A stretch of 64,000 bases of DNA from an uncultured Candidatus Saccharibacteria bacterium (GCA_964447415.1 CAYUSN010000001.1:121727-185726); one strand, 5' to 3'; positions 12,806 through 34,936 are shown, counted from the first letter of the stretch. The notes: generated from the sequence alone by a model not told the origin. Made by a program: numbers and translations.

Positions 12806-12935
12806 AAAAAAGCACGAAGCACGAAATACGAATCTCGAAACAAACTCGAAATCAGAAATTCTAATGTTTAAAACATTCAGGTTTCGAAATTAGATATTGT
12901 TTCGGATTTCGACATTCGGATTTCGAAATTAACTC
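12806..12935. repeat. ~125-bp palindromic intergenic repeat, copy 1, between rplJ and rplL.
   Basis: Left half AAGCACGAA…CGAAATACGAATCTCGAAACAAA pairs with right half TTTGTTTCGGATTTCGACATTCGGATTTCGAAATT. Apex palindrome AATGTTTAAAACATT at 12863-12877. Confidence 0.7.
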
Positions 12936-12942
12936 AAAAACT

Positions 12943-13356
12943 ATGTCAGATGAAGCAACAGTACAGGCGGGAGCGGACGAGAAGGTAGAAGTTCCCGCGC
13001 AATTCAAGGATTTGGTTTCAAAAATCGAAACCATGTCAGTGATTGAACTCAACGAGCTCGTCAAAGTGCTCGAGAAAAAATTCGGCGTCTCGGCGGTTGC
13101 AGCAGCGGCAGCACCTGCCGCAGCAGCGGCAGGCGAGGAAGAGAAGTCGGAGTACACCGTTGAGCTTACGTCAGTTGGCGACAACAAAATCGCCGTCATC
13201 AAGGCGGTGAAGGAAGTCTCGGGTCTCGGCCTCAAGGAGGCAAAAGATCTCGTTGACGGCGCACCGGGCGTCATCAAAGAGGCGGTCAAGAAAGAAGACG
13301 CCGAGGTGATGAAGAAAAAAATCGAGGAAGCAGGTGGCAAAGTGACTCTTAAATAG
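12943..13356 (+). CDS. rplL: 50S ribosomal protein L7/L12.
   Basis: Typical L7/L12: an N-terminal helix, an Ala-rich hinge and a C-terminal domain (…[11 protein letters not shown]…). Confidence 0.9.
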
Positions 13357-13393
13357 AGTCACTTTGATCCGGAACCTCCCTATCCCCAACATG

Positions 13394-13436
13394 GAGAAAA
13401 CACCCCCCCCCTGCACAGGGGGGGGGGTGTTTTCTG
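13394..13436 (+). terminator. Intrinsic terminator with a homopolymeric stem: AAAACAC-C9-tgcaca-G10-TGTTTT.
   Basis: A C9 run and a G10 run form the stem, with an A tract before and a T tract after. Confidence 0.6.
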
Positions 13437-13472
13437 TTATCATGTATTCACATCTATTCATAAACTCTGCAT

Positions 13473-15476
13473 ATGATATATAAGAAACATCTCTTCCTCG
13501 TACTTGCGTCACTCATGTTGGCAACCCCCGTGTCTGCAGCAACCGTGCCGGTGTTTGATTGGGTTGCTGCACGAACCGACTCACTTATTGGTCTTCAGGG
13601 AGGATTCAGTGTGGCCTACACACCAGCAGTTGATTCGGCTGATGGCAGTATCTACATCTCGAATTTTTTTACAGGGACACCTGATTTTGACCCTGGAGCA
13701 GGAACGGATTCCATTGCTTCAAATGGAGAGGAGGATAACTTCCTCTCCAAGTTTGATTCGAATGGCGCATACCTATGGACAAAAACATGGGGGGGCACGG
13801 GAAGAGAGCGCACGCTAGGAGCCACAGTTGATGGCAACGGAAACGTCTATAGTGTGGGCACATTTTCAAGCACGGTTGATTTTGATCCAGGAGCTGGGAC
13901 ATTCTTTGCTACATCAACAGGCGGTACTGATAACTTTGTTTCAAAATTTGATTCCGATGGAAACTTTATTTGGGCAAAGACGTGGGGGAATGCAAGCAAC
14001 CAAAACACCCTCCGAATGGTTACAACAAACGATACAGGAGATGTTTTTGTGCACGGACACTTTACAGGTACGGTTGATTTTGATCCGAGCGCTGGAACGG
14101 CATTTGCAACATCAACGGCAGGGAATGATATTTTTCTTTCAAAATTTGACTCGGATGGAAACTTTGAGTGGGTGAAAGCGTGGGGAGGGACAGGGGACGA
14201 CGGTTCATCGGGAGTTAAAATTGCGAATGACGGAGCGCTCTTCTTTACAGGTATTTTTACGAACACAATTGATCTTGATCCAAGCGTGGCTACTGCCTCA
14301 TCAACATCAGCAGGAAGTTATGATAGATATTTTTTGAAACTTTCTACAACAGGTGATCTTGTGTATGCAAAAACATGGGGAGGAACCGGATTTGATTCTG
14401 CCGGGGAACTTCAGTTTGGGAATGGTGATGCGGTGTATGTTTTTGGAGGATTTTCAAGCACGGTTGATTTTGATCCAGGTCCTGGCGAGGCGTTTGCGAC
14501 ATCAACAGGAGGTTTGGACGCATACTTTTCAAAATTTGATGCTGATGGAAATTTCGAATGGGTAAAAACATGGGGAGGCTCGGGGACCGACGTTGCTGTT
14601 AACGCGGTTGTGAATGAAAACACCCTTACTGTTGTTGGATATTTTTCAAGCACGGTTGATTTTGATCCAAGCGCCGGAACTGACTCAAAAGTATCTGTAG
14701 GAGGACTTGATGTGGCCATCTCTACATACTCACCAGATGGAACATATATCCGTACGGACACATTCGGTGGTTCGCTCGACGATTTTCTTGATTCGTTACC
14801 ACAGGGCGTGGCCTTTGGTTCGGACACGCTCGTTCTCGCAGCCTATTACAAAAGCGCACCCGCCGATTTCGATCCAGGTCCTGGAGTTTCGTCTGCATCA
14901 TCAAATGGAACATCGCTCTACATTTCTTCCCTCAACCTCGTTGAAGCTTCAGTCGGAGTCTCCCCGACATCAGGTACTGCCGAAGAGGGGGGTGATACGC
15001 TCACCTACGATATTGTGCTCAATGCTCCGCCGACTGATGACGTCGTCATCACTGTTACCCCCGACAGCCAACTCTCAGTTTCCACAACAACACTCACGTT
15101 CGCCTCAACCACATGGGACACACCGCAGACAGTGACGGTCACCGCGGTTGACGATGAGGAAAACGAAGATGACCCGCACACCGGCGTTGTGACGCACACT
15201 GCGGCCTCAGACGATGCATTGTATGACGGCATTACCGTCGGAAGCGTGACCGTGTCAATTGATGAAAACGATTCATCCGGTGGCGGTGGCTCCTCGCGTA
15301 GTACCCGCGCCATTCAGGCACTCACCGACACCGAGCCCGAAACACTTCCGCCTGCAGTACCGTTGACACCCGAGCAGGTGCAGGAGGCAATAGTCAAGGT
15401 GAAACAACAACTCATCATCGTTATCCAACAGCTTATCGTGCTGCTACAGGAAGAGATTGCAAAACTCTCCAGATAG
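13473..15476 (+). CDS. Secreted SBBP-type beta-propeller repeat protein with a Calx-beta/cadherin-like beta-sandwich and a conserved C-terminal motif. Paralog 1 of 3.
   Basis: Signal peptide MIYKKHLFLVLASLMLATPVSA. About 8 repeats of the form …VDFDPxxGTxxATSxGGxDxFxSKFDSDGxFEWVKTWGG…. C-terminal …SSGGGGSSRS…QQLIIVIQQLIVLLQEEIAKLSR. Confidence 0.75.
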   Translation: MIYKKHLFLVLASLMLATPVSAATVPVFDWVAARTDSLIGLQGGFSVAYTPAVDSADGSIYISNFFTGTPDFDPGAGTDSIASNGEEDNFLSKFDSNGAYLWTKTWGGTGRERTLGATVDGNGNVYSVGTFSSTVDFDPGAGTFFATSTGGTDNFVSKFDSDGNFIWAKTWGNASNQNTLRMVTTNDTGDVFVHGHFTGTVDFDPSAGTAFATSTAGNDIFLSKFDSDGNFEWVKAWGGTGDDGSSGVKIANDGALFFTGIFTNTIDLDPSVATASSTSAGSYDRYFLKLSTTGDLVYAKTWGGTGFDSAGELQFGNGDAVYVFGGFSSTVDFDPGPGEAFATSTGGLDAYFSKFDADGNFEWVKTWGGSGTDVAVNAVVNENTLTVVGYFSSTVDFDPSAGTDSKVSVGGLDVAISTYSPDGTYIRTDTFGGSLDDFLDSLPQGVAFGSDTLVLAAYYKSAPADFDPGPGVSSASSNGTSLYISSLNLVEASVGVSPTSGTAEEGGDTLTYDIVLNAPPTDDVVITVTPDSQLSVSTTTLTFASTTWDTPQTVTVTAVDDEENEDDPHTGVVTHTAASDDALYDGITVGSVTVSIDENDSSGGGGSSRSTRAIQALTDTEPETLPPAVPLTPEQVQEAIVKVKQQLIIVIQQLIVLLQEEIAKLSR

Positions 15477-15504
15477 ACCGGAACTTAAAAATCAACTACC
15501 CCAT

Positions 15505-17484
15505 ATGACATATAAAAAACATCCCTTTCTCGTACTTGCGTCACTCATGTTGGCAACCCCCGTGTCTGCAGCAACCGTGCCGGTGTTTGATTGGGTGAAT
15601 ACGTGGGGAGGAACAGGGAGTGATTCCGGTTCGAACGTTGTTTTTGACGGAGATGAAAATATCTATACCGTTGGTCGTTTTAATGTAACTACCGACTTTG
15701 ATTCCAGTGCAGGTACCGCATATGCGACATCAAGTGGTGAGGGAGACGCTTACTTATTAAAATCAGATCCAAATGGAATCTTTGAGCTGGTAAAAACATG
15801 GGGTGGTAGTGGTGATGACACTGCTAGTTTGGTTAGTTCTGACGGACTAGGTGGGCTTGTTGCATCCGGACGATTCTCAAACACCGTTGACCTAGACCCT
15901 GACGTAGGCACTGTGTTTGCAACATCAAGTGGCGGATATGATATGTATCTTTCCAGATTTGATACGGACGGTGTGCTTGAATGGTCGGGTGTCTGGGGTA
16001 GTACAGGCAGTGATGTCGGTGCGTTTGTTGTCCCCACTTTCAGTGACGCTGTTTATGTTATGTCTAACTTTGCCGGCGTCATTGATTTTGACCCTGGTGT
16101 AGATACTGCCTTTGCGACATCAAGTGGTGGATTTGACATGGCCCTTTCCAGGTTTAACTCAGACGGCATTTTTGAATGGGTGAAGACATGGGGAGGAACA
16201 GGCAACGAAATTCTGGGGGGCAGTTCATCGGTGGGACTTGACGGGGTGGGAGGAGTGTACGTTCTCGGTAATTTTAGTGGTACGGTTGATTTTGATCCCA
16301 GTGTCAGCACCACTTATGCAACCTCAAGCGGATCAGCGGATGCTTTTGTGTCTAAGTTTGACTCGGACGGTACGTTTGAATGGGTGAAAACGTGGGGAGG
16401 AACAGGGAGTGATGGGGCGCGCGGGGTGTTTTTCGATGACGAAGATAATATCTATATGATTGGTTCTTTTGCGAACACCGTCGACTTTGACCCTAGTGCA
16501 GGTACCGCGTATGCAACCTCAAGCGGAAACGCTGATGCTTCACTCTCCAAATTTGACTCAGAAGGTACATTTGAGTGGGTGAAGGCGTGGGGCGGAACAG
16601 GTAATGAGTTTGTAGAAAACGGTGCGGTTAATGAGGGTGATGTCTATGTATTTGGTTCTTTTGCGAACACGGTTGACTTTGATCCGAGCGCCAGCACCGC
16701 CTTTGCAACTTCAAACGGATCAGACGACGCCTTCGTGTCTAGGTTTAACTCGGAGGGTACGTTTGAATGGGTGAAGACATGGGGAGGAACCTCATCAGAC
16801 ACCTCCAAACATATGAATTTTCTCGATGGAAAAGCATTTATAAGCGGTACTTTTCAAAACACCGCCGACTTTGATTTCTCTCTCGGAACAGAAAACCGAA
16901 CATCGGCCGGTTCCGGTGATGTGTATCTCCTTGTCCTCAACCTCCTCGAACCCGCCGTCACCGTTTCTCCAACCTCGGACAGTTTAGACGAAGCAGGTGC
17001 CGGCACTTTTGACTACGACCTCGTGCTTGCAACGCCGCCCGAGAACGACGTCGTTATCACCATCACTCCTGATGTACAGGTGTCTGTGTCCACCACGTCA
17101 CTCACCTTCGCTTCAACCACATGGGACATTGCACAGACAGTGACGGTGAGTGTTGTTGACGATGAGGAGAACGAAGACGATCCGCACACCGGCGTCATAA
17201 CGCACACCGCAGTATCAGATGATGCGGCATATGACGGTATTACTATCAGCAGTGTGACGGTGTCAATTAACGAGAACGACTCGTCCGGCGGCGGTTCTTC
17301 ACGAAGCAGTGTGCGCGCTGTTCAGGCAATCACCGATGTTGAACCCGAGACACCCCCGCCCGCAGTACCGCTGACGCCTGAGCAAGTACAGGAGGCGATA
17401 GACAAGGTGAAACAACAGCTTGTGGCCGTTCTTCAACAGCTTATCGTGCTGCTACAGGAAGAGATTGCAAAACTCTCCAGATAG
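15505..17484 (+). CDS. Secreted SBBP-type beta-propeller repeat protein, paralog 2 of 3.
   Basis: Signal peptide and C-terminal motif identical to paralog 1. Start MTYKKH at 15505. Confidence 0.75.
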   Translation: MTYKKHPFLVLASLMLATPVSAATVPVFDWVNTWGGTGSDSGSNVVFDGDENIYTVGRFNVTTDFDSSAGTAYATSSGEGDAYLLKSDPNGIFELVKTWGGSGDDTASLVSSDGLGGLVASGRFSNTVDLDPDVGTVFATSSGGYDMYLSRFDTDGVLEWSGVWGSTGSDVGAFVVPTFSDAVYVMSNFAGVIDFDPGVDTAFATSSGGFDMALSRFNSDGIFEWVKTWGGTGNEILGGSSSVGLDGVGGVYVLGNFSGTVDFDPSVSTTYATSSGSADAFVSKFDSDGTFEWVKTWGGTGSDGARGVFFDDEDNIYMIGSFANTVDFDPSAGTAYATSSGNADASLSKFDSEGTFEWVKAWGGTGNEFVENGAVNEGDVYVFGSFANTVDFDPSASTAFATSNGSDDAFVSRFNSEGTFEWVKTWGGTSSDTSKHMNFLDGKAFISGTFQNTADFDFSLGTENRTSAGSGDVYLLVLNLLEPAVTVSPTSDSLDEAGAGTFDYDLVLATPPENDVVITITPDVQVSVSTTSLTFASTTWDIAQTVTVSVVDDEENEDDPHTGVITHTAVSDDAAYDGITISSVTVSINENDSSGGGSSRSSVRAVQAITDVEPETPPPAVPLTPEQVQEAIDKVKQQLVAVLQQLIVLLQEEIAKLSR

Positions 17485-17512
17485 ACCGGAACTTAAAAAT
17501 CAACTACCCCAT

Positions 17513-19522
17513 ATGACATATAAAAAACATCCCTTTCTCGTACTTGCGTCACTCATGTTGGCAACCCCCGTGTCTGCAGCAACCGTGCCGGTGTTTGATT
17601 GGGTAAACGGAGGGGACAGTTCTCTGATAAATACTACCATCGGTGGTTCCGCCCAAGTGTATAAAGTTGAAGTTGATACAAACGACGGGAGTATCTATGT
17701 TTCCGGACAGTTCACCGGCACACCCGATTTTGATCCGTCGGGCGATACGGACGAAATTGCTTCGGCGGGCGACAGAGACGCCTTTCTTTCTAAATTTGAT
17801 GCGGACGGCGGATATCTTTGGACGAAAACGTGGGGTTCAACCGCAGCTGACATTATTCGTGATGCGCTTGCCGTAGACACGAACAGCGACGTCTACGTTG
17901 CAGGTTCGTTCAGAGGAACGGTTGATTTTGATCCAGGTCCTGGCGAGGCGTTTGCGACATCAACAGGACAGAACGATGTGTTTTTCCTTAAACTTAATTC
18001 CGACGGAGAATTTGTGTGGCTCAAAACATGGGGCAAAACAGGATCAGAAACAGGATTCCCGTTTGATATAGAGGAAGCAACGGACGGGGGGGTTTTTGTA
18101 TACGGCGGATTTGACGGAACGGTTGATTTTGATCCAGGTCCTGGCGAGGTGTTTGCCACATCAACAGGAAGTGTTGATTTTGTGCTTTCAAAATTTGATG
18201 CAGACGGTACGTTTCAGTGGGTGAAAACATGGGGAAGCACCGGTTTTGATAGCGCGACATCCCTACATGAGGGTGAAGACGGATCGGTGTATCTTATGGG
18301 CCTATACGCTGGTACGACGGACTTTGATCCCGGCGCGGGCGTTGTATCGGTCGGGACAAACGGCGGTTCCGATGCGTTTGTTCTCAAACTTGATACGGAC
18401 GGATTGTTCCAATGGGTTCGTGTATGGGGGGGAGCTTCTACCGACGTCGCATACAGCGCAAACACCGACTCTACAGGCGGTTTGTATGTAGCGGGTTATT
18501 TTCAGGGCACTGCAGACTTAAATCCAACTGACGGTACAGCGACCACAACATCTGCAGGAGGCACAGACGCACTTCTCATGAAACTCGATTCAGACGGCAA
18601 TTTTGAGTGGGTGAAGACGTGGGGGAGCACGGGGTCGGACGATGTTCGTAAAACGGTTTTCTTTGACGACGGGTATCTTGTTCTTGGTAGGTTTTCGGAA
18701 ACCGTCGATTTTGATCCTGATGCCGGAGTAGATGAGAAGGTGGCGGCTGGTTCGGACGTGTCAATGTCTCTTTTCAATTTGAATGACGAGTATATACGCA
18801 CCGACACGTTCGGCGGGGCGCTTGATGAGTGGGTAGACAACGCTCCTGACAATAATTTGTCTTCGGGTAAGGCTCTTTTCGGCGGTTTTCACAAATCAGA
18901 TCCTGCCGATTTTGACCCGTCGGGGAAGGTGGCAGAACACTCAGGCGGTGGGGTGGATACAATGTATGTTGTCTCCTTCACCATGACGGAGCCGGCTGTC
19001 ACCATCACCGCATCCGACACAACGGCGTCCGAGGCGGGCGACACGGCGGCGTATTCCGTAGTCCTCACCGCGCCTCCGCATGAGGACGTCGTTGTTACTC
19101 TTACACCTGACAACCAGCTTTCTGTTTCTACCACTTCACTTACGTTCACGTCTGCAACGTGGGACATGCCGCAGACAGTGACGGTTACCGCAGTTGACGA
19201 TGAGGAAAACGAAAATGACCCGCACACCGGCGTCGTGACGCACACTGCGGCCTCAGACGATGTGTTGTATGACGGCATCACCGTCGGAAGCGTGACCGTG
19301 TCAATTGATGAAAACGATTCATCCAGCAGCAGCTCCTCGCGTAGTGCCCGTGCTATTCAGGCGATTACCGGCGCTGGGCCCGAAACACCTCTACAAACGG
19401 CACCGCTGACGCCCGAGCAAGTGCAGGAGGCAATAGTCAAGGTGAAACAACAACTCATCATCGTTATCCAACAGCTTATCGTGCTGCTACAGGAAGAGAT
19501 TGCAAGGCTTTCTGTCCAATAG
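17513..19522 (+). CDS. Secreted SBBP-type beta-propeller repeat protein, paralog 3 of 3.
   Basis: Same N-terminus and C-terminal motif. Start MTYKKH at 17513. Confidence 0.75.
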   Translation: MTYKKHPFLVLASLMLATPVSAATVPVFDWVNGGDSSLINTTIGGSAQVYKVEVDTNDGSIYVSGQFTGTPDFDPSGDTDEIASAGDRDAFLSKFDADGGYLWTKTWGSTAADIIRDALAVDTNSDVYVAGSFRGTVDFDPGPGEAFATSTGQNDVFFLKLNSDGEFVWLKTWGKTGSETGFPFDIEEATDGGVFVYGGFDGTVDFDPGPGEVFATSTGSVDFVLSKFDADGTFQWVKTWGSTGFDSATSLHEGEDGSVYLMGLYAGTTDFDPGAGVVSVGTNGGSDAFVLKLDTDGLFQWVRVWGGASTDVAYSANTDSTGGLYVAGYFQGTADLNPTDGTATTTSAGGTDALLMKLDSDGNFEWVKTWGSTGSDDVRKTVFFDDGYLVLGRFSETVDFDPDAGVDEKVAAGSDVSMSLFNLNDEYIRTDTFGGALDEWVDNAPDNNLSSGKALFGGFHKSDPADFDPSGKVAEHSGGGVDTMYVVSFTMTEPAVTITASDTTASEAGDTAAYSVVLTAPPHEDVVVTLTPDNQLSVSTTSLTFTSATWDMPQTVTVTAVDDEENENDPHTGVVTHTAASDDVLYDGITVGSVTVSIDENDSSSSSSSRSARAIQAITGAGPETPLQTAPLTPEQVQEAIVKVKQQLIIVIQQLIVLLQEEIARLSVQ

Positions 19523-19545
19523 AACTTCTTACACAAACCCGCAAA

Positions 19546-19576
19546 AAACACCCCACAAAGGGGTGTTTTTGTTTTA
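19546..19576 (+). terminator. Intrinsic terminator (AAAACACCCC-acaaa-GGGGTGTTTT then TGTTTT).
   Basis: Hairpin plus U tract after the third paralog. Confidence 0.6.
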
Positions 19577-19604
19577 ATGAAGAATGCGTCTATAATCGGG
19601 GTGT

Positions 19605-21173: not shown

Positions 21174-21235
21174 GAAAAGCACGAAAGTCGAATATCGAAA
21201 TTCGAAAATCCGCCCGCGCTGTACAGCGCAGGCGG
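21174..21235. repeat. Half copy (left arm) of the palindromic intergenic repeat, followed by a GC hairpin AATCCGCCCGCGCTGTACAGCGCAGGCGGATT.
   Basis: AAGCACGAAAGTCGAATATCGAAATTCGAAAA matches the left-arm consensus of the copies at 12806, 31778 and 34806. Confidence 0.55.
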
Positions 21236-21302
21236 ATTCGTGTATCGTCGCAGATAGAAAAAACTGTTACACAAAACGCTGAATCGGCGAAAGGGGTTTC
21301 AA

Positions 21303-23517: not shown

Positions 23518-23886
23518 ATGAGTACTTTGAAACCAAAAACACCACGAAAGACGAAGAAAGAAAAAGCGCACGACGAGGCGCCGCACAAGCTGCGCATCCG
23601 CGTTCGTGCCTACGAACACAAACTGCTCGACGAATCGGTGAAGCAGATTATGGATACCGCGACGAAGTACGAAGCGGAAGTCATCGGCCCAATACCGCTT
23701 CCCACCGAGCGTTCAATGTATACGGTCAACCGCGGCGCATTCATCGATAAAAATGCGCGCGAACAGTTTGAAATACGCGTGCACAAACGGGTGCTTGATA
23801 TCACGAACCCGTCGCCGAAAGTGATTGAAGCGCTCACCTCGCTGTCGCTTCCCTCAGGAGTCAATATTGAAGTCAAAATGATGTAA
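23518..23886 (+). CDS. rpsJ: 30S ribosomal protein S10 with a Lys-rich N-terminal extension.
   Basis: KLRIRVRAYEHKLLD…GPIPLPT…EIRVHKRVLDI matches the S10 core. ATG at 23518 preferred over TTG at 23494. Confidence 0.85.
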   Translation: MSTLKPKTPRKTKKEKAHDEAPHKLRIRVRAYEHKLLDESVKQIMDTATKYEAEVIGPIPLPTERSMYTVNRGAFIDKNAREQFEIRVHKRVLDITNPSPKVIEALTSLSLPSGVNIEVKMM

Positions 23887-23887
23887 A

Positions 23888-23920
23888 CAAAAAACCACCC
23901 TACGAGGGGTGGCTTTTTGT
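23888..23920 (+). terminator. Intrinsic terminator (AAAAACCACCC-tacga-GGGGTGGCTTTTTGTT).
   Basis: Hairpin plus T tract directly after rpsJ. Confidence 0.55.
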
Positions 23921-23982
23921 TATGCACACGGAAGAAAAAATCGTTGCCAGGTGATTTTGAGGAAGTGCTATACTTACGGGAT

Positions 23983-26574
23983 ATGAAGTCATCACTATTT
24001 TTTATGCGGTTGGGAGTTATTTCAACCTCCGTAGTATTTTCACTTTTTTGTGTTGGTGTTTCTCATGCACAGGCAGCAACACTGTATTTTAATGGTGTAG
24101 TGAATTCAAATTGGAATACGTTGGGTAACTGGTGGACAGATGTAGGGTTCTCTGCGCCAGCAGGGAGTCTTCCAGGCGTGGGTGATGATGTGATTATTTC
24201 TGCTGACGTACTTTCAAATAGCGGTCCTGCGGCATCTGTAAACAGCATGCTGGTGAGTGGCCCCGCTGTTATAGGAATACCGGTAACCGTTGCAGTAGAT
24301 GCATCGTTTCATGACTCAAGCTCGCTCCGTAACCTTGTTATTGGTGACGCATGTTTTGCAACAACTGCAACAAACGGGCCGCGGTTTTTCGCAGGCCTGG
24401 GCCAGAGCAACAGGTCTTGGAGTAACTTTGCGGCGGCACCAAACGGTGATGTATATGGTGTTACGACTACTAATAATGAAATTTACAAACAAACAGGTGG
24501 TACGGGAGACTTTGTTGATTTGGGTATATTTATCTCCGGTGCATTTAGTATCGGCGTTGCACCAAATGGTAATGTGTATGCGGGCTCATACGGTGGTGAT
24601 ATGTATATGCAGACAGGGGGTGTGGGTAGCTTTGACGCTCTCAATCAAACTTTCAGAAATTGGTTAGGTATCACGGTGGCTCCAAACGGGGATGTATACG
24701 CCACGGGCTTTAACGAGGACATCTACAAACAAACATCTGGCGTGGGTGATTTTGTAGCTCTCGGACAGACTGTTCGTTCTTGGCAAACAATGGCGGCTGC
24801 ACCAAATGGTAATATTTATGCAATTGCAAATGATAATAAAATATACAAACAAACCTCCGGCATGGGAGATTTTGTTGATATAGGCGCACCAGTCAAATCG
24901 TGGTCTGGTATCACTATTGCTGCAAATGGGGACGTATATGCAAGTGTGTTTAACGGTGATATTTACGTACAATCAGGTGGTACTGGTGACTTCAATGCTC
25001 TCGGAGAAACATCGAGGAATTGGAGAGGTATGACAGTTGTCCCGAACGGTAACATTTATACTGGTGTTGTGGGTGGAGATGTATACATGCAGGATAATAG
25101 TGGTACAGTCACGGGGGCTACTACTGTTTGTTCCGCAGCGCTTCCTGTGGTCACGACATCAGCAACAACGTTGGGGATAAGTGGATCCACCTCACTGCTT
25201 TTAGGATCGATTGATGATACTGGTGGGGAAAGTATAAGTACACGGGGTTTTGAATACGGCCTGACAGAAAGTTATGGAGCCGCAACGTCTGAATCAGGGG
25301 TTTTTAACTCTGGCTCCTATAGTTTTTTTGCGGAGAACTTAACATGTGGCAGCGCCTATCATTTTCGAGCATTTGCTACGAATGGGGTAGGAACTGCTTA
25401 CGGTGCGGATGAAACATTTACCACACCAGCCTGTTCATCGGACAGCACTCTTTATGGCATTGATGGTTCGGGTAGTAATTCTGATGACCCACAACTGTAT
25501 GTGCTTGACCCTCTTACGGGTCTGAAGATAGAAACAATTGGACCGGTTGGTTTCTATGTCACCGGAATGGCATTTGACCCTACAACGGGTATTTTGTATG
25601 GAAGTACGGGAGGAAGTGGAATTAATTCAAAAAGTTTGATTACCATAAATACAGAGACAGGAAACGGAACATATCTTGGTGCTATTAAGAATGCGGGAAA
25701 TACATCACTGAATATGCCAGATATCACCTTCCGTTCAGATGGTAGATTATACGGATGGTATGGAAATGATAGTAGTCTCTACACAATCGATTTGACTTCT
25801 TGTGATGGAGTTGATGTCTCCTGTCTCGCAACAAAAGTTGGAGATTCGGGCTTAAGTAGCAACGGTGGCAACGGGCTCGCATTTGATAGTAATGATACCT
25901 TATTTCAATTTGGGAATTATGACGATAGTTATTATCAGATAAATCCAGACACTGGGGAGTCCGTTGCCGAATTCTCATTTACAAATCCTACTGGGGATAG
26001 TCATCCTATAGCGGCAGCCTCTTTCAATCAAAGTGACACTCTCTATCTTTCTCGGTTGTATTACGGAAGCCCAGGAGATTTAGTGATAGTTAACACCGAT
26101 ACGTATGAAATATTTTCTACAGGTGAGAATAATGATGAGATGGCTTACATGGACGCAATTGCGTTTTATATTCCTCCCGACACCACCGCCCCTGTCATCA
26201 CTATTCTCGGCGACAATCCAACCACTATCACCGTTGGTGATACATACACCGACGCAGGAGCAACAGCAGAAGATGATACCGACGGTGATATTACTGGAGA
26301 CATTGTGACAACCAACAACGTCAACGCTGCAGTTGCCGGTACGTACACGGTTGTCTATGATGTATCTGACACGGCACTCAATACTGCATCTGCAGAACGA
26401 ACGGTTATTGTGAATGAAGAAGAATCGAGTGGTGGAGGAAGTAGCAGACGCCGTGACGTTGCCGACGAACCCGTTAATTCTTCACCTACAACTCAAACAC
26501 CACTCGAGCAGCTTCTACTGGAACTCATTGAAGCACTCAAACTGCTCATTGCTGAGTTGATGAAAACACGGTAA
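23983..26574 (+). CDS. Large secreted protein: ~45-aa beta-propeller-type repeats, an FN3-like domain, a second propeller-like region, a bacterial Ig-like (DUF5011-type) domain and the shared C-terminal motif.
   Basis: Signal peptide MKSSLFFMRLGVISTSVVFSLFCVGVSHAQA. Repeats of the form …APNG(D/N)VYA…DIYKQTSG.GDFV.LG…. C-terminal …SSGGGSSRRR…LLELIEALKLLIAELMKTR. Confidence 0.7.
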   Translation: MKSSLFFMRLGVISTSVVFSLFCVGVSHAQAATLYFNGVVNSNWNTLGNWWTDVGFSAPAGSLPGVGDDVIISADVLSNSGPAASVNSMLVSGPAVIGIPVTVAVDASFHDSSSLRNLVIGDACFATTATNGPRFFAGLGQSNRSWSNFAAAPNGDVYGVTTTNNEIYKQTGGTGDFVDLGIFISGAFSIGVAPNGNVYAGSYGGDMYMQTGGVGSFDALNQTFRNWLGITVAPNGDVYATGFNEDIYKQTSGVGDFVALGQTVRSWQTMAAAPNGNIYAIANDNKIYKQTSGMGDFVDIGAPVKSWSGITIAANGDVYASVFNGDIYVQSGGTGDFNALGETSRNWRGMTVVPNGNIYTGVVGGDVYMQDNSGTVTGATTVCSAALPVVTTSATTLGISGSTSLLLGSIDDTGGESISTRGFEYGLTESYGAATSESGVFNSGSYSFFAENLTCGSAYHFRAFATNGVGTAYGADETFTTPACSSDSTLYGIDGSGSNSDDPQLYVLDPLTGLKIETIGPVGFYVTGMAFDPTTGILYGSTGGSGINSKSLITINTETGNGTYLGAIKNAGNTSLNMPDITFRSDGRLYGWYGNDSSLYTIDLTSCDGVDVSCLATKVGDSGLSSNGGNGLAFDSNDTLFQFGNYDDSYYQINPDTGESVAEFSFTNPTGDSHPIAAASFNQSDTLYLSRLYYGSPGDLVIVNTDTYEIFSTGENNDEMAYMDAIAFYIPPDTTAPVITILGDNPTTITVGDTYTDAGATAEDDTDGDITGDIVTTNNVNAAVAGTYTVVYDVSDTALNTASAERTVIVNEEESSGGGSSRRRDVADEPVNSSPTTQTPLEQLLLELIEALKLLIAELMKTR

Positions 26575-27697: not shown

Positions 27698-27705
27698 TTG
27701 TTCTA

Positions 27706-28472: not shown

Positions 28473-28473
28473 T

Positions 28474-28932: not shown

Positions 28933-28942
28933 TACACCGACT

Positions 28943-29794
28943 ATGAAATCATACAAACCAACAAGCAAAGGACGCCGCGGCATGACCGGTATCGAATACC
29001 GGAAACACCTGACGCGCAGCACGCCGCACAAGCCGCTTACCGGCGGATTTAAGCGTTCCTCGGGACGAAACGCGTTCGGTCGGCTCACCACACGCTCCAT
29101 CGGCGGCGGTCACAAACGACGCTTCCGCGACATTGATTTCTCATACGACAAAAAAGATATTCCGGCGCGCGTTGAATCAATTGAATACGATCCGAACCGC
29201 ACCGGTTTTATCGCGCTGTTGGTGTTTTCAGATGGTGCGCGCCGCTACATTCTTGCGCCGCAGTCGATGAAAGTCGGCGCAACATTCCTCGCGTCTGAAA
29301 AAGCACCGCTTATTCCCGGCAACCGTCTTCCGCTTGCAAAAATTCCCGTCGGTACGTTTGTGTACAACATCGAAGCAAAGCAAAACGGCGGTGCAAAGAT
29401 CGCGCGTTCGGCGGGGAACTACGCGGAAGTGGTTGCACACGACGGCGGATACACGCTTATCAAAATGCCGTCAACGGAAATTCGGCGCGCATCAGAAAAA
29501 TCATGGGCATCAATCGGAGAAGTCTCGAATCCTGAAAACAAACTCGTGAATCTCGGTAAGGCCGGTCGCAAGCGCTGGCTCGGCAAGAAGCCGAAAGTCC
29601 GCGGTACGGCGATGAACCCGGTTGACCACCCGCACGGAGGAGGTGAGGGACGTCAGGGACGCGGTCACCGACGCGCACGCACACGTCACGGTAAAAACAC
29701 AGGCAAAGGACACAAGACGCGCCGTCCGAAAAAATACTCAAACTTCCTCATCGTCTCGCGCCGCAAAGTCGGCAAGAAACGAAAGGCAAACTAA
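28943..29794 (+). CDS. rplB: 50S ribosomal protein L2.
   Basis: L2 signatures (…GRN..GRIT.RH.GGGHKR…NPVDHPHGGGEGR…). Confidence 0.95.
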   Translation: MKSYKPTSKGRRGMTGIEYRKHLTRSTPHKPLTGGFKRSSGRNAFGRLTTRSIGGGHKRRFRDIDFSYDKKDIPARVESIEYDPNRTGFIALLVFSDGARRYILAPQSMKVGATFLASEKAPLIPGNRLPLAKIPVGTFVYNIEAKQNGGAKIARSAGNYAEVVAHDGGYTLIKMPSTEIRRASEKSWASIGEVSNPENKLVNLGKAGRKRWLGKKPKVRGTAMNPVDHPHGGGEGRQGRGHRRARTRHGKNTGKGHKTRRPKKYSNFLIVSRRKVGKKRKAN

Positions 29795-29802
29795 TACACA
29801 AC

Positions 29803-29839
29803 ACACGCCCCGGCAAAAGCCGGGGCGTGTTTCTTTTTT
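29803..29839 (+). terminator. Intrinsic terminator after rplB (ACACGCCCCGG-caaaag-CCGGGGCGTGT then TTCTTTTTT).
   Basis: 11-bp GC stem plus T tract. Unusual inside an S10 operon. Confidence 0.6.
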
Positions 29840-29906
29840 ATATAAAGCAGAAAGGGCGCCGTACGTTCACGACGCCCTCAATGGGATTTCCGAGACCGGG
29901 GTGGTG

Positions 29907-30095
29907 TTAGATGGCCGCGATCGTGATCGAAGCGATCGCCAGCGTCAGCCAGACGCCGCGGTACCGGCCTTCCTTCGGCCGGACGTTGAGCGTGGGGAAG
30001 ACCCCCTGCTTCACCTCCGCGACGACGAACTCTCCGTTCGGGTCCCACTTGACCCGATAGACCCCCGGACGTACTGCATTGTACTCGGAGCGCAT
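29907..30095 (-). CDS. Small GC-rich membrane-anchored protein, 62 aa, on the strand opposite the ribosomal operon.
   Basis: GGAGGG Shine-Dalgarno 7 nt upstream of ATG. C-terminal TM helix ([16 protein letters not shown]). About 62% GC. The longer 86-aa ORF reaches 30167. Confidence 0.4.
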
Positions 30096-30245
30096 CCCGT
30101 TACCCTCCAGGCTCTCTTTTCCACGGAATGTGGAGAAGAGTACTTCTACAGCTGACTTTACATACAATTTTCATAAAGCGCAAGACCACTGTGTATTACC
30201 TGTGGAAAGACGGCTTCTTTGAGGGCGTTTTTGGCACCGCAACAT

Positions 30246-30274
30246 TTGACCGTGGGGTATGCTTCTGGTACTAT
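30246..30274 (+). promoter_or_regulatory. Promoter for rpsS (TTGACC-17-TACTAT). A 10-bp perfect palindrome GTCGAAAAAC-ttg-GTTTTTCGAC lies downstream at 30315-30337.
   Basis: Hexamer match. The palindrome sits in the 5' UTR. Confidence 0.4.
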
Positions 30275-30352
30275 GCCTCGAAGGCCGGTGGGCCATTTTT
30301 TTGGCGCTTAGCGCCGTCGAAAAACTTGTTTTTCGACCATTCAAAAGAATCA

Positions 30353-30697
30353 ATGACACGATCACTCAAAAAAGGACCATATCTCAACGTAAAGCTCATG
30401 CAGAAGGTGGGCAAGCAGAAACCGGGAGGACCGGCTATTAAAACGTGGGCGCGCGCATCCGTTATTGCCCCGGAAATGGTCGGCTATACATTTGCAGTTC
30501 ACAACGGCAAAGTTTTTAACGATGTATTTGTAACCGAGGAAATGGTCGGACACCGCCTCGGTGAATTTTCGCCCACGAAGACATTCCGCAAGCACGGAGG
30601 TCAGATGCAGAAGGCGCTTGATACCGCAAAGAAGGAAGCGGAAATTTCCGCAGCACACGCGGCGAAGGCAGCAGCAGAAGGTGCCGTAAAGAAATAA
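30353..30697 (+). CDS. rpsS: 30S ribosomal protein S19, with an Ala/Lys-rich C-terminal extension.
   Basis: [12 protein letters not shown]… start and S19 core. The longer ORF from 30128 is an upstream artefact. Confidence 0.9.
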
Positions 30698-30698
30698 T

Positions 30699-31115
30699 AT
30701 GCGCGTGTATCTCAAAAATTACCGTCAGTCGCCCCGCAAAGTTCGCCTCGTCGCGAACCTTATCCGCGGCAAAAGCGTTCCCGCAGCGCTTACACTGCTT
30801 CGTGTGACACCGAAGCGGGCAACGGTTCAGCTTGAAAAATCACTCCGTTCCGCGCTTGCGAACGCAAAGCAGAAGGGGATGACCGACGCAGACACGCTTA
30901 CCGTTAAAGAAATCCGCGTGGATAAGGGTGTGACCCTGCATCGATTTTTGCCCCGCGCACAGGGACGCGCGACCCGTTTTGACAAGCACTCAAGCAACAT
31001 CATTATGGTGCTCGGAGAATCAAAGAAAGCGGACGTGAAGGCGGAAAAGACCGAAACCGAGAAGGCGGCAAAAAAAACAGCACCGAAAACAAAAGCTAAA
31101 AAAGCGACAACGTAA
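30699..31115 (+). CDS. rplV: 50S ribosomal protein L22, with a Lys-rich C-terminal extension.
   Basis: L22 core and operon position. Confidence 0.9.
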   Translation: MRVYLKNYRQSPRKVRLVANLIRGKSVPAALTLLRVTPKRATVQLEKSLRSALANAKQKGMTDADTLTVKEIRVDKGVTLHRFLPRAQGRATRFDKHSSNIIMVLGESKKADVKAEKTETEKAAKKTAPKTKAKKATT

Positions 31116-31120
31116 TTTAT

Positions 31121-31777
31121 ATGACACACCGAGTTCATCCATTTGCACATCGTCTGGGAATTCTTCGTGACTGGCAGTCACGGTGGTTTGCGCGTGGTGC
31201 TGATTATCGCGCAAACCTTAAGACGGACGTGCTCATCCGAAGAAAAATCGCCAAGCTCACCGAAAAAATGTACGTCGGCGGCATTGAAATGGAACGCCGC
31301 GGCGCACAGCTTCGCATCATCATCAAGACGTCCCGTCCCGGTCTTATCATCGGACGCTCGGGTGAGGGTATTGCAAAGCTCAAAAAAGAAATAGACTCCT
31401 TTGCCGCAAAGCAGGGACTGGAGGGTGTCGGCGCCATCAAACTTGAAATTGAGGAGATAAAGTCGCCGGAATCAAACGCCGCAATCGTAGCAAGTATGGC
31501 AAAAGAGGGTATCGAGAAGCGCACACCGTTTCGCCGCGTGCTCAAACAGACTGTCGACAAGGTGATGGCGAACAAAGATGTGCAGGGCGTCCGTATTCAC
31601 CTCTCAGGTCGCCTCGGCGGGGCCGACATGGCGCGCCGTGAGCAGATTAAGAAAGGACGCATTCCGTTGCAGACGTTCCGCGCCGACATTGATTACGCAC
31701 ACGACGAAGCGCACATCCCGCAGGGACAAATCGGCATCCGCGTCTGGATTTACCGCGGTGATATCTTTAAAAAATAA
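31121..31777 (+). CDS. rpsC: 30S ribosomal protein S3.
   Basis: KH domain and S3 C-terminal domain (…GIRVWIYRGDIF). Confidence 0.92.
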   Translation: MTHRVHPFAHRLGILRDWQSRWFARGADYRANLKTDVLIRRKIAKLTEKMYVGGIEMERRGAQLRIIIKTSRPGLIIGRSGEGIAKLKKEIDSFAAKQGLEGVGAIKLEIEEIKSPESNAAIVASMAKEGIEKRTPFRRVLKQTVDKVMANKDVQGVRIHLSGRLGGADMARREQIKKGRIPLQTFRADIDYAHDEAHIPQGQIGIRVWIYRGDIFKK

Positions 31778-31900
31778 GCACGAATATCGAAGCGCGAAAT
31801 TCGAAACAAGCACGAAACATGAAGGCTCAAATGTTCAAAACTTCAAAAAGTAAGATTTCAGATTTGTTTCGGATTTCGATATTCGGATTTCGAATTTAAA
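31778..31900. repeat. Palindromic intergenic repeat, copy 2, between rpsC and rplP.
   Basis: GCACGAATATCGAAGCGCGAAATTCGAAACAAGCACGAAACATGAA…TTTGTTTCGGATTTCGATATTCGGATTTCGAATTT. Confidence 0.7.
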
Positions 31901-31905
31901 AAAAT

Positions 31906-32322
31906 ATGTTGTTTCCGAAGAAAGTAAAATACCGAAAGTGGCAGACGAAGCGCGTGAACCCGAAGAAAGTCGGGGTTGCTTCGCGCGGCACGACGATTGC
32001 GTTCGGTTCCTTCGGACTGAAAGCAGTGTCTGCACATCGCGTGACGTCAAATCAGATTGAAGCGGGACGACGTGTCATTCGCCGCGCGCTCGGCAAGAGC
32101 GGCAACCTCTGGACCCGTATTTTCCCCGACCGACCGTACACGGCAAAGCCGGCGGAAGTGGGCATGGGTAAGGGGAAAGGAGACCCGAAAGGGTTTGTGG
32201 TTGAAGTACTTCCCGGACAGATGCTGTTTGAAGTAGACGGCGTTCCTGAGGCGCTTGCGCGTGAGGTGCTTCGTAAAGGAGGCGCGAAAATGCCGTTGAA
32301 GACGAAAATTATTGCGCGATAA
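31906..32322 (+). CDS. rplP: 50S ribosomal protein L16.
   Basis: L16 conservation (MLFPKKVKYRK…). Confidence 0.92.
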   Translation: MLFPKKVKYRKWQTKRVNPKKVGVASRGTTIAFGSFGLKAVSAHRVTSNQIEAGRRVIRRALGKSGNLWTRIFPDRPYTAKPAEVGMGKGKGDPKGFVVEVLPGQMLFEVDGVPEALAREVLRKGGAKMPLKTKIIAR

Positions 32323-32351
32323 GGTATTCTTCTGTAGTATCACCAGACTCT

Positions 32352-32546
32352 ATGGCGAAAAAAACCGACATCACGAATATGACCGACAAAGATCTGCTGG
32401 CGCTCGTTTCCGAAAAGCGGGAGGCGCTCCGACAGGTTCGGTTTGCAACATCGTCATCACGCGGACGTGACGTAAAAAAAATGCGGGAGAGCAAGAAGGG
32501 AATCGCACGCGCACTGACTGAATTGTCACGCCGCAGTGCACAGTAA
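32352..32546 (+). CDS. rpmC: 50S ribosomal protein L29.
   Basis: 64-aa helical protein of the L29 family, in the expected position. Confidence 0.85.
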   Translation: MAKKTDITNMTDKDLLALVSEKREALRQVRFATSSSRGRDVKKMRESKKGIARALTELSRRSAQ

Positions 32547-32550
32547 TCAT

Positions 32551-32790
32551 ATGGATACACAAGCAAAAAAACCGAAAACGCTGAAGGGTACCGTCGTGTC
32601 AGACAAGATGAAAGACACGGTGGTTGTCCGTGTGGAGCGCTATATTAAGCACCCGAAGTACGGCAAATTCATGAAACGGCAGAAACGATACAAAGCGCAT
32701 GATGCAGGCAACACGAAGCGCATCGGAGAGGTGGTTACGATTATTGAAACCGCGCCGTATTCAAAGGACAAGCATTTTAAAGTGATGTAA
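32551..32790 (+). CDS. rpsQ: 30S ribosomal protein S17.
   Basis: S17 core (…[20 protein letters not shown]…). ATG at 32551 preferred over the overlapping GTG at 32536. Confidence 0.85.
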
Positions 32791-32794
32791 GTAT

Positions 32795-33166
32795 ATGATT
32801 CAGCCTCGTTCCATCGTGCAAATTGCAGACAACTCCGGAGCAAAAGTCGGACGTGTTTTCAAAGTGCTCGGCGGCAGCAAGCGCCGATATGCGGAAATCG
32901 GCGACAAGGTGGTTATTTCCATTCAGATTGCAGAACCGCGCAAGGCGACGAAGAAAAAAGACGTCGTGCACGCGGTTGTTGTACGCCAGACGAAAGCGTT
33001 TCGCCGAAAAGACGGTTCGTATGTTCGTTTTGATGAAAACGCGGTCGTGCTCGTGGACAAGGTGAAACCGGAACCGAAAGCAAACCGCATCTTCGGACCC
33101 GTTCCGCGCGAACTTTCAGATAAAGGTTTTCAGAAAATTGTATCGCTTGCACCCGAGGTTGTATAA
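32795..33166 (+). CDS. rplN: 50S ribosomal protein L14.
   Basis: [17 protein letters not shown]… L14 signature. Confidence 0.93.
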
Positions 33167-33170
33167 CGTT

Positions 33171-33386
33171 ATGCACGTCAAAAAAGGAGACAAAATCAAA
33201 GTGATCGCAGGAAAAGACAAAGGTACCTCAGGTACGGTGGTGCGCGCGTTTCCGAAAAAGAACATGGTGCTTATTGAGGGCGTCAACAGGGTCAAACGGC
33301 ACCAGCGTGCCAAAAAGGGCAGCGCAAAAGGACAGATTCTTGAAAAGGCGATGCCGATTCACGTATCTAACGTACAGAAAGCATAA
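33171..33386 (+). CDS. rplX: 50S ribosomal protein L24.
   Basis: [18 protein letters not shown]… KOW motif. The ORF track's 33138 start is an upstream artefact. Confidence 0.88.
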
Positions 33387-33391
33387 TTTGT

Positions 33392-33946
33392 ATGATTCCT
33401 GTTAAAGAAAAACAGAAAAAAGCGTTTGCAGACCTCAAGGACGTGTTGCACATCAAAAACACGATGGCGCTTCCGCATGTCGAAAAAATCGTCATCTCCG
33501 TCGGTATCGGTTCGGTGAAGGACAAAAACAAAATCGAAGTGATTCAGGACCGTTTGGGTAAAATTACCGGTCAGAAATCAGTCGGACGTGTCGCGAAAAA
33601 ATCCATCGCGTCATTTAAGCTCCGCGAAGGACAGACCATCGGCTACCAGATTACGCTCCGCGGTCAGCGCATGTACGATTTTCTTGATCGTCTGCTCAAC
33701 ATCGCGCTTCCCCGCACGCGTGACTTCCGCGGTATCGACCGAAAATCAGTTGACCCGATGGGCAATCTTACCATCGGTATCCGCGAACACCTTATTTTCC
33801 CTGAAACGGCGGATGAAGAAGCACGCGACGTGTTCGGTCTTGCCATCACCATCGTTACCTCGGCCCGCAACAAAAAAGACGCCGAAACCTACCTTGAATA
33901 TATCGGTGTGCCGTTCAAAAAAGAGACGGAAAAGGCCAAAAAATAA
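33392..33946 (+). CDS. rplE: 50S ribosomal protein L5.
   Basis: L5 conservation throughout. Confidence 0.92.
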   Translation: MIPVKEKQKKAFADLKDVLHIKNTMALPHVEKIVISVGIGSVKDKNKIEVIQDRLGKITGQKSVGRVAKKSIASFKLREGQTIGYQITLRGQRMYDFLDRLLNIALPRTRDFRGIDRKSVDPMGNLTIGIREHLIFPETADEEARDVFGLAITIVTSARNKKDAETYLEYIGVPFKKETEKAKK

Positions 33947-33955
33947 AGAAAAGCC

Positions 33956-33988
33956 CCGCCAAAAAGAAGGCGGGTTTTTTCTTGCCCT
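33956..33988 (+). terminator. Intrinsic terminator after rplE (AGCCCCGCC-aaaaagaa-GGCGGGTTTTTTC).
   Basis: Hairpin plus T6. Unusual between rplE and rpsN. Confidence 0.5.
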
Positions 33989-34150
33989 TTTTTGGCGGTT
34001 CTGGTAGTATACGAGGGCTTTACTTTTGTGGAGCTAGTCCTTCCAGAGCCAATAGGCGCAGGGGGGAGACCATCGCCTCGTTATCTGCCAGCCGGTCACA
34101 CGACCCATGGGCACATCCAAGAGGCAGCATTTTTTTTGGAAATAAAGCAT

Positions 34151-34420
34151 ATGGCACGAAAAAGCAATCTTGCACGGGACAAAAAACGAGCGGTTATGCG
34201 TACCCGCACGGCGGCAAAACGCGCCGCGCTCAAGGAGACGCACGACTACGAAGCGCTCCAGGGCCTGAAGAAAAACGCGTCGCCGGTTCGTACAAAGAAC
34301 CGCTGTTTTAAGTGTGGTCGTCCGCGCGGCTACATGCGCGAATTCGGTCTGTGCCGCATCTGTTTCCGCGAACTCGCCAACAAAGGAATGATTCCGGGCG
34401 TTAAAAAAGCATCATGGTAA
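34151..34420 (+). CDS. rpsN: 30S ribosomal protein S14, type Z (zinc-binding), with an N-terminal extension.
   Basis: CFKCGRPRG…CRIC zinc-ribbon motif typical of S14 type Z. The ORF track's 33992 start is an upstream artefact. Confidence 0.85.
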
Positions 34421-34803
34421 CCGACCCTATCGCAAATTTCATAATTGCTCTCCAGAATGCCGCGCGCGCAGGCAAAGAAACCGTGCTGGTACACCGTTCA
34501 GCGCTTAAAGAGGCGGTTGCTGCGACACTTAAAGGTGCAGGGTACATTTCAGGTTTTTCAATCAAGGGAAAAAACGACAACAAAATTGAAGCAACACTCG
34601 CGTTTGCCGACGGTGTTGCAAAGATTCACGGTGTAAAGCGCGTGTCACGTCCGGGTAAGCGCGTGTACTGCGGCGCATCTGATATTTATCCGGTACGCAA
34701 CGGCTACGGACACCTGGTGCTGTCAACGCCTGCAGGTGTGATTACCGGACAGGATGCACGCAAACGAAAAGTCGGCGGAGAGGTACTGTTTGAAATCTGG
34801 TAA
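34414..34803 (+). CDS. rpsH: 30S ribosomal protein S8.
   Basis: S8 conservation ([16 protein letters not shown]…). Overlaps rpsN by 7 nt. Confidence 0.92.
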
Positions 34804-34805
34804 CA

Positions 34806-34936
34806 AATGCAAGCACGAATGTCGAAGTACGAAATTCGAAACAAGCACGAAATATGAAAATCCAAATATCAAAAAAAGAAAAATACGAAAATCCAAATTT
34901 GTTTCGGATTTCGATATTCGAATTTCGAATTTAATT
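34806..34936. repeat. Palindromic intergenic repeat, copy 3, between rpsH and rplF.
   Basis: AAGCACGAATGTCGAAGTACGAAATTCGAAACAAGCACGAAATATGAAAA…TTTGTTTCGGATTTCGATATTCGAATTTCGAATTTAA. Confidence 0.7.

Follow-up and report, generated by a model that had tools for sequence, protein, structure and literature searches.

Imperfect palindromes in the ribosomal protein operons of an uncultured Saccharibacteria bacterium are cargo-less miniatures of a PF05635 gene cassette

The elements and their location

A 64,000-nucleotide (nt) stretch from an uncultured Candidatus Saccharibacteria bacterium (GCA_964447415.1, CAYUSN010000001.1:121727-185726), read on one strand 5' to 3' and hereafter called the window, carries a dispersed imperfect palindrome, mainly in intercistronic gaps of its ribosomal protein operons. 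A reading made from the DNA alone (the sequence-only reading) had described three full copies and one half copy, foldable as hairpins in the messenger RNA (mRNA), and each of the four sites was located in the window. The observation thus holds, with its interest lying elsewhere than was proposed there: the window elements are a local sample of a selfish family of the intervening-sequence (IVS) type that extends across phyla. The features are listed below, with positions counted from the first letter of the window.

12806-12935: copy 1, in the rplJ-rplL gap (Pfam flanks L10 and L7/L12; blastn, Tandem Repeats Finder (TRF), folding)
31778-31900: copy 2, in the rpsC-rplP gap (Pfam flanks S3 and L16)
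34805-34939: copy 3, in the rpsH-rplF gap (Pfam flanks S8 and L6; limits set by an empty allele)
21174-21250: truncated copy, 3' of an MscS-like gene (Pfam)

The short distances to the neighbouring codons that had been described hold, the upstream stop codons ending at 12804, 31777 and 34803 and the downstream starts lying at 12943, 31906 and 34942 for copies 1, 2 and 3 respectively. The other gaps in the ribosomal protein operon of the window measure 1-10 nt and are devoid of a Shine-Dalgarno sequence.

The arms of the palindrome are inverted arrays of a 7-nt unit. The left arm has the form (NNNCGAA)n and the right arm (TTTCGRA)n, with the units of the latter in the order TTTCGGA-TTTCGAT-ATTCGGA-TTTCGAA. 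In copy 1 the left heptad arm spans ~12810-12846, with AAGCACG repeated twice at 12810-12825, and the right arm (12897-12931) reads TTTCGGA/TTTCGAC/ATTCGGA/TTTCGAA; in copy 2 the arms lie at 31778-31809 and 31862-31900. Inside the left arms, inner remnants are retained in copies 1-3 (TCTAATGTTTAAAAC in copy 1, CAAATGTTCAAAAC in copy 2, which agrees with the family consensus, and CCAAATATCAAAAAA in copy 3), and the right inner arms are decayed. Arrays of period 7 were detected by TRF at 12810-12825, 12900-12925, 21182-21210, 31867-31897 and 34902-34932; the right-arm pattern has three matches in the window against 0.00 expected (100 shuffles), and CGAAATTCGAAA has eight at no more than one mismatch against 1.3 expected. 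Copies 2 and 3 share 81% identity across 124 nt, and the right arms of the window copies are 88-90% identical. None of these copies contains an open reading frame (ORF), and no constant target sequence adjoins the four of them. A weak further candidate at 23535-23570 was rejected, being located inside the rpsJ coding sequence.

At the fourth site, previously taken for a half copy at 21174-21205, the left arm is indeed found (21174-21207), and the element is rather a truncated copy, in which a G+C-rich hairpin (21208-21238) replaces the core and a short right remnant, TTCGTG, pairs with CACGAA.

As RNA, copies 1, 2 and 3 are predicted to form interrupted stems of ~25-35 bp, shorter than the ~50-bp hairpin first suggested, with energies of -30.8, -30.5 and -26.8 kcal/mol (z -4.4, -2.8 and -2.5), and the truncated copy folds with a minimum free energy of -34.2 (z -4.3). 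The stems pair through the CGAA/TTCG cores, and the 3-nt linkers are often mismatched. No promoter-like or terminator-like site was found on the coding strand of the window elements; in particular, a G+C-rich stem followed by a U tract is absent from all four, so that an intrinsic terminator or attenuator was rejected, and such sites are present elsewhere in the window (13403-13426 and 33955-33974).

Distribution of the family

The family is defined here by the right arm GTTTCGGATTTCGAYATTCGRATTTCG(R)ATTT and by a left arm of AAAYNCG heptads ending in CGAAAC, and its consensus is AAATTCGAAGCACGAAATCCGAAATTCGAAAC-AAATTCAAATGACCAAAATTCAAATGTTCAAAAC-[variable]-GTTTTGAACATTTGAATTTTGGTCATTTGAATTTG-TTTCGGATTTCGATATTCGGATTTCGGATTT. 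All three full window copies match the 26-nt family pattern and align along their full length to family copies, with E-values down to 3e-20 (blastn), those of copy 1 against L113, L114, L021 and L002 ranging from 3e-20 to 3e-14. In the family alignment (A2), CGAAAC and the right arm show no or almost no variation.

Its breadth was measured with the exact 26-nt right arm in GTDB species-representative genomes, one per species. The search for copies in other genomes returned at least 120 stretches, all from metagenome-assembled genomes (MAGs), and in most of them the complementary left arm lies 60-170 nt upstream. By record title, the matches listed include ~50 Desulfobacterota, 25 Planctomycetota, 15 Patescibacteria or candidate phyla radiation (CPR), and 13 Verrucomicrobiota/Lentisphaerae, the remainder including smaller numbers of Aminicenantes, Binatia, Nitrospirales, Calditrichota and Omnitrophota, besides a few Proteobacteria; the family is therefore spread over more than 10 bacterial phyla, and since some matches lie on megabase contigs, this breadth is not a binning artefact. 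The supposition that the element is peculiar to this genome thus finds no support, also because other CPR genomes carry the family in ribosomal gaps (rpsL-rpsG, nusG-rplK and, as an independent copy in the distant genome L083, rpsH-rplF) as well as adjoining fusA, frr and rsmH, and because heptamers in ribosomal protein operons of Beggiatoaceae had already been reported (PMC4679880).

With gene calls based on ORF heuristics, 64 of 83 family copies lie between co-directional genes, many of them abutting a stop codon, and the adjoining host genes are of every functional kind. Rfam gave no family at gathering score or at permissive E-values, with chance matches to microRNA and snoRNA models only. 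Carriage by phages or plasmids is unsupported, given one match of the right-arm pattern in 2.9 million viral contigs and none of the consensus in 72,556 plasmids. No description of the family or of its link between cassettes and miniatures was found in open-access papers and preprints; searching the literature by sequence string returned unrelated primer matches only, and the supplement of a paper on CPR rRNA insertions contained no match.

Some loci show rearranged arms. Three tandem 46-nt right-arm repeats are found in L086 (Thermoguttaceae, oriented ~7407-7545), and the left arm of L040 is (AAATCCG)6, which suggests local amplification by slippage or unequal exchange within the heptad arrays. 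In a single 'delta proteobacterium' MAG (CAWDJO01), the right flanks of three loci (L024, L033 and L035) share GATTTTTCAAT..CC..AACCTGTTTGGTYC, suggesting that there the palindrome is part of a larger composite repeat.

Full-length cassettes with a PF05635 gene

In L036, L040 and L098 matching arms stand 470-580 nt apart and enclose a gene for a protein of ~120 amino acids (aa) of the PF05635 family, annotated as "23S rRNA intervening-sequence protein". A full-length cassette thus measures ~0.5-0.6 kb and carries a single small gene, encoding a PF05635 four-helix-bundle protein, in the layout 5'-(AAAYNCG)n-AAAC-AAATTCAAATGACCAAAA...[gene]...GTTTTGAACATTTGAA-TTTG-(TTTCGRA)n-3'. The arrangement in L098 (TAA, element, ~20 nt, ATG) is that of the window copies.

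A scan with an alignment of the cassette proteins returned at least 548 metagenomic relatives. Among the best 80 of these, the left-arm consensus lies directly upstream of the gene in 43, the right one directly downstream in 45 and both in 28, against 6 and 4 in the wrong-side controls. The ATG of the cassette gene is the ATG within the inner left-arm motif AAATGACCAAA, so the inner arms of the short elements are remnants of the 5' and 3' ends of the cassette, and inner arms of this origin (AAATTCAAATGACCAAAA..TTCAAAAC / GTTTTGAACATTTGAA) are found in the window copies. The window copies are therefore cargo-less miniatures of the PF05635 cassette, as their family membership and derivation show. 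Such miniatures are 100-170 nt long and, like the cassettes, occupy short spacers between co-transcribed genes, in most cases immediately downstream of a stop codon and with 5-30 nt separating them from the start codon that follows. Arms around a PemK toxin gene in L105 were discarded, the left-arm match being weak (6 mismatches) and probably due to chance.

Pairing of the arms

The cores of the heptads change jointly on both sides (CG, TA and GG variants). The dominant core pairs are CG:CG in 39 loci, CT:AG in 8 and AC:GT in 1, and compensated variants such as AAATCCT/AGGATTT, AAATCCC/GGGATTT and AACAAAC/GTTTGTT occur in cassettes. The arms of a locus pair better with each other than with arms swapped between loci (z = -7.0, a value reached in 0 of 20,000 permutations), which indicates that inverted complementarity is maintained. 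A consensus fold of 46 aligned copies with RNAalifold missed the long hairpin and returned only a local self-fold of the right arm, a result due to slips of the heptad register in the alignment and to the right arm being fixed by the search pattern.

The strand on which the elements act was addressed in two ways. Orientation relative to the genes is uninformative, because the palindrome reads A-rich arm first on both strands; an asymmetry in folding energy between strands was rejected as ascertainment by the G-containing search pattern, unlinked to the direction of transcription (p = 0.31). Since the transcribed strand folds no better than the other, there is no evidence of RNA-specific selection.

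These features also bear on an improbable alternative, according to which the arms would be arrays of protein binding sites, in DNA or RNA, with binding rather than the hairpin as the principle at work, serving for instance translational control or the maintenance of the element; candidate binders are the pentameric PF05635 protein, ribosomal protein S1 and a cold-shock protein. It would account for the strict 7-nt periodicity, for the nearly invariant CGAA core next to 3-nt linkers that vary and are often mismatched between the arms, for a unit number that expands and contracts, as in the (AAATCCG)6 of L040, and for PF05635 subfamilies with different heptamers, as expected under co-evolution of protein and site; in addition, MacGregor proposed RNA-binding proteins for TAACTGA repeats upstream of start codons (PMC4679880). 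However, the arms are always inverted pairs and their core changes are compensatory, which points to pairing, and the window is devoid of a PF05635 gene. Furthermore, it is compatible with a selfish cassette and does not exclude it.

Presence and absence among strains and relatives

A strain that co-occurs with that of the window (strain B) is about 96-99% identical to it across the stretches compared; L122, L132 and L133, identical over an 833-nt overlap, were treated as this one strain. At the rpsH-rplF gap, L124 and L127 match the window at 100% identity and contain copy 3, whereas L122, L123, L125 and L126, which encode an identical S8 protein and are 98.4-99.9% identical, have a gap of 4 nt. 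The filled allele reads TGGTAAC[135 nt]ATATG and the empty one TGGTAAC-C-ATATG, so that the inserted segment amounts to 135 nt (34805-34939). No target-site duplication is visible at this single empty/filled site, and neither a duplication nor slippage explains the 1-nt difference of the empty allele. Copy 2 is present in strain B (L132) and identical at 128 of 128 positions (window 31778-31905 versus L132 1373-1500); the surrounding 3 kb are 97.6% identical, so that ~3 differences would be expected in copy 2 and none is seen. Assemblies of the window strain repeatedly break inside the copies, and all the copy 1 contigs found end within the element.

Among more distant relatives, L128 and L130 have an S8 protein 76-77% identical to that of the window. 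When the same gaps were compared, L130 proved empty at both sites (rpsC-rplP gap of 14 nt, rpsH-rplF gap of 5 nt) and L128 is without a full element (rpsC-rplP gap of 54 nt); the best named relative by S8 belongs to Candidatus Campbellbacteria, at 67% identity, and the bacterium of the window is Patescibacteria/Parcubacteria-like. Parsimony favours insertion over loss. The window copies are dispensable and polymorphic for presence and absence.

These observations bear on the role first proposed, a host-beneficial cis-regulatory RNA that, as an RNase III site, a stabiliser or an attenuator, would uncouple translation and fix the relative amounts made of L7/L12, L16 and L6. Several features speak for it: the copies stand in tightly coupled operons whose other gaps are of 1-10 nt, their hairpins are stable (z -2.5 to -4.4), copy 2 is identical at 128 of 128 positions while its flanks differ by ~2.4%, the distant CPR relative L083 is also filled at rpsH-rplF, other CPR copies are located in translation operons, and the related Coxiella stem is cut by RNase III. 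On the other hand, the rpsH-rplF copy is missing from a near-identical co-occurring strain, the operon copies are missing from related genera (L130 is without both and L128 without a full element), the genes hosting the family are functionally of every kind, the window copies have decayed inner stems, the transcribed strand is no more stable as RNA (p = 0.31) and a terminator-type signal is absent from the elements. A dedicated regulator of ribosomal protein stoichiometry is accordingly unlikely.

A still weaker case can be made for a classical miniature inverted-repeat transposable element (MITE) or a repetitive extragenic palindromic (REP)-type element, that is, a non-autonomous derivative of a DDE element (e.g. 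IS630), of IS200/IS605 or of a REP-associated tyrosine transposase (RAYT), moved by a transposase in trans. Terminal inverted repeats, small size, numerous copies, presence/absence polymorphism and assemblies interrupted at the copies, as is usual for repeats, are all in its favour, and the termini, often TAAAT...ATTTA, could hide a TA duplication, which is the one made by IS630. The single empty/filled pair, however, shows no duplication, the full-length relatives encode the PF05635 protein only and no transposase, no constant target stands beside the four window copies, and the viral and plasmid collections gave one match and none, respectively. A classical MITE was rejected for want of a duplication at the single site and of a transposase-bearing parent, and the whole alternative is very improbable.

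Comparison with known systems

The closest known entity is the S23p-type rRNA IVS of Coxiella burnetii and Leptospira (PMC4990558). In the 23S rRNA gene of Coxiella it is bounded by terminal inverted repeats and contains an S23p ORF, with the heptamer GACAGAT in 2-3 tandem copies upstream of the ATG, and its cleavage by RNase III at the first repeat was shown experimentally, in Coxiella only (PMC4990558). As in the family, a long stem is formed by the terminal inverted repeats with the PF05635/S23p ORF in the loop, tandem heptamers, variable in number, occupy the 5' arm shortly before the ATG, and the occurrence is scattered and differs between strains, a pattern suggestive of horizontal transfer, with no transposase; Ralph and McClelland, as cited in PMC4990558, proposed that the IVS ORF encodes a component of mobility. 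Terminal inverted repeats and tandem heptamers of the 5' arm are both found in the window copies. In contrast, the S23p-type IVSs lie inside rRNA helices and the window copies between protein-coding genes, the heptamer is GACAGAT in Coxiella and CGAAAYN in the family, and the ORF in the loop is absent from the window copies and present in full-length relatives with the same arms. As the rRNA location is missing, the family is filed as a variant of the S23p-type IVS and not as a member.

Intergenic heptamer arrays form a second group of comparison. TAACTGA repeats occur in Beggiatoaceae, Cyanobacteria and Bacteroidetes, in ribosomal protein operons just upstream of start codons (PMC4679880), and 70-75 convergent (inverted) pairs of GGGAATC are described in Xanthomonas together with GGGGAYT arrays in Nostoc (PMC4692102); neither paper draws a link of the repeats to a PF05635 gene or to IVSs. 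Like the family, these arrays and the cyanobacterial short tandemly repeated repetitive (STRR) sequences have a 7-nt unit, are intergenic, patchy across phyla and variable in copy number, and tandem 7-nt intergenic units are likewise found in the window copies. They differ in being direct arrays or pairs of other unit sequences, whereas the family is a defined palindrome that has an outer and an inner pair of arms. Its inner pair contains TTGGTCA, which we take to be the STRR2 unit of Mazel et al. 1990.

More distant four-helix-bundle genes, among them those of cultured cyanobacteria, are also flanked, in an equal layout, by inverted heptamer arrays of other sequences: (AATCCCC)6(AATCGTA)4 in Planktothrix, where AATCCCC is a CCCCAAT-type heptamer, and (AAATTCA)4 / (TTTTGAA)4 in Nostoc flagelliforme; the heptamer of the four-helix-bundle gene in L113 is CAATGRT. 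A PF05635-like gene with arms (AAGTAAA)n / (TTTACTT)n was further observed on plasmids of Nostoc sp. TCL26-01 and Anabaena cylindrica PCC 7122 (L219, L220), between cas2 and cas1 and on the opposite strand, and a similar cassette in Planktothrix (L221) lies between drmD and an MmeI-type restriction gene.

Neisseria Correia/NEMIS, enterobacterial repetitive intergenic consensus (ERIC) and Yersinia YPAL elements are imperfect palindromes of 100-170 nt, restricted to a genus or family, that are co-transcribed and fold as hairpins; Correia hairpins are RNase III substrates, and Correia elements duplicate TA and carry a site for integration host factor (IHF). They bear no sequence similarity to the family, which in contrast spans more than 10 phyla and whose full-length relatives carry a PF05635 gene and not a transposase. 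The kinship with ERIC or bacterial interspersed mosaic elements (BIME) that had been supposed therefore finds no sequence or Rfam relationship behind it: no Rfam match and none in 72,556 plasmids was obtained for ERIC or REP/BIME, association with RAYT not having been looked at genome-wide, and identity with ERIC, BIME or Correia elements was rejected.

The PF05635 protein is homologous to Avd of the diversity-generating retroelements, a pentameric four-helix-bundle protein acting together with RNA and a reverse transcriptase (PMC10053308). Unlike that system, the cassettes inspected have neither a reverse transcriptase nor a template/variable repeat nearby.

Proposed explanation

The window elements are probably miniature, cargo-less derivatives of a selfish IVS-type gene cassette and not a conserved regulator. 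Loss of the gene from a cassette would leave a palindrome of 100-170 nt; being self-complementary, the insert would close as a hairpin in the mRNA and the stop codon and the next start would stay spatially close. Insertion would be tolerated because the insert folds on itself and keeps stop and start near, by the same logic that allows IVSs at the tips of rRNA helices. The A/U-rich right end (TTCGAATTTAAAAAAAT-ATG) moreover resembles the native sequence before the ATG in this lineage devoid of Shine-Dalgarno sequences, the native motif of the relative L128 being TTCAAATTTAAAAAT-ATG. By analogy with the Coxiella IVS, RNase III probably cuts the stem, and such cleavage would segment the operon transcript.

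Several points weigh against the derivation from a selfish cassette. No mobility enzyme was found, and the sole cargo, the PF05635 protein, is without an assigned function; in the 64-kb window no PF05635 gene is present. None of 215 loci has an rRNA neighbour (blastn of the E. coli rrnH operon), so the tie to the classical IVSs is one of architecture and cargo family. Taxonomy was taken from the titles of MAG records, and some bins may be mis-assigned, such as an 'Alcaligenaceae' MAG. As for the insertion itself, there is a single empty/filled pair, whose polarity comes from distant outgroups, and a gain in the window strain (strain A) is inseparable from a loss in strain B; copy 3 looks decayed and shares only 81% identity with copy 2, so that a recent insertion would need an unseen, near-identical master copy. 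The perfect identity of copy 2 between the strains may reflect constraint, gene conversion or chance, and the conservation of CGAA cores even where the linkers are unpaired fits a sequence-specific binder no less than a plain hairpin. Finally, tolerance through hairpin folding is inferred and RNase III cleavage is a prediction.

A broader and doubtful extension would unite the PF05635 cassettes with inverted heptamer arms and their miniatures in one unrecognised class of mobile elements, present throughout bacteria, of which the rRNA IVSs would be only those members that landed in rRNA. Under this tentative scheme the STRR sequences, the Xanthomonas GGGAATC pairs and the Beggiatoa TAACTGA repeats would be footprints of the class, the Avd-like pentameric protein would be a factor of mobility or maintenance recognising its own heptamers, possibly through an RNA intermediate, and the spacers of highly transcribed operons would be preferred.

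Significance

The origin and movement of S23p-type IVSs and the function of their protein have been long-standing questions since ~1990-1993, and what heptamer repeats such as STRR signify has been in question since 1990. The family links these three subjects and offers hundreds of natural copies with compensatory variants of the arms, together with a pair of strains distinguished by one insertion within an essential operon. It also shows that a reduced genome tolerates an insert of 130 nt between translationally coupled ribosomal protein genes. On the practical side, the element breaks short-read assemblies at the ribosomal protein operons of uncultured lineages, and the recovery of marker genes is affected.

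Neighbouring features of the window

Directly after rplL, in the place usual for rpoB/rpoC, three tandem paralogous ORFs of ~670-700 aa occupy 13473-19522. Their N-terminal ~95 nt are 96-100% identical and signal-peptide-like, internal repeats of ~195 nt (65 aa) are present, and no Pfam family was found for the first ORF. The hairpin at 13403-13426, also located after rplL, is strong and terminator-like.

The rplE-rpsN spacer (33947-34150) is unusually long for an operon that is compact elsewhere. It includes the terminator-like hairpin at 33955-33974 and, after it, a promoter-like box, TCTGGTAGTATA, which is shared with two related genera (L128 3898-4194, L130 3955-4223). For this spacer, which may serve rpsN and the later genes as an internal promoter or leader, Rfam returned only weak sub-threshold matches (FuFi-1, Thr_leader). 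Downstream of rpsJ (23519-23886) there is a terminator-like hairpin, AAAAACCACCC...GGGTGGCTTTTT, and an ORF of 885 aa (23917-26574) sits between rpsJ and the rest of the S10 operon.

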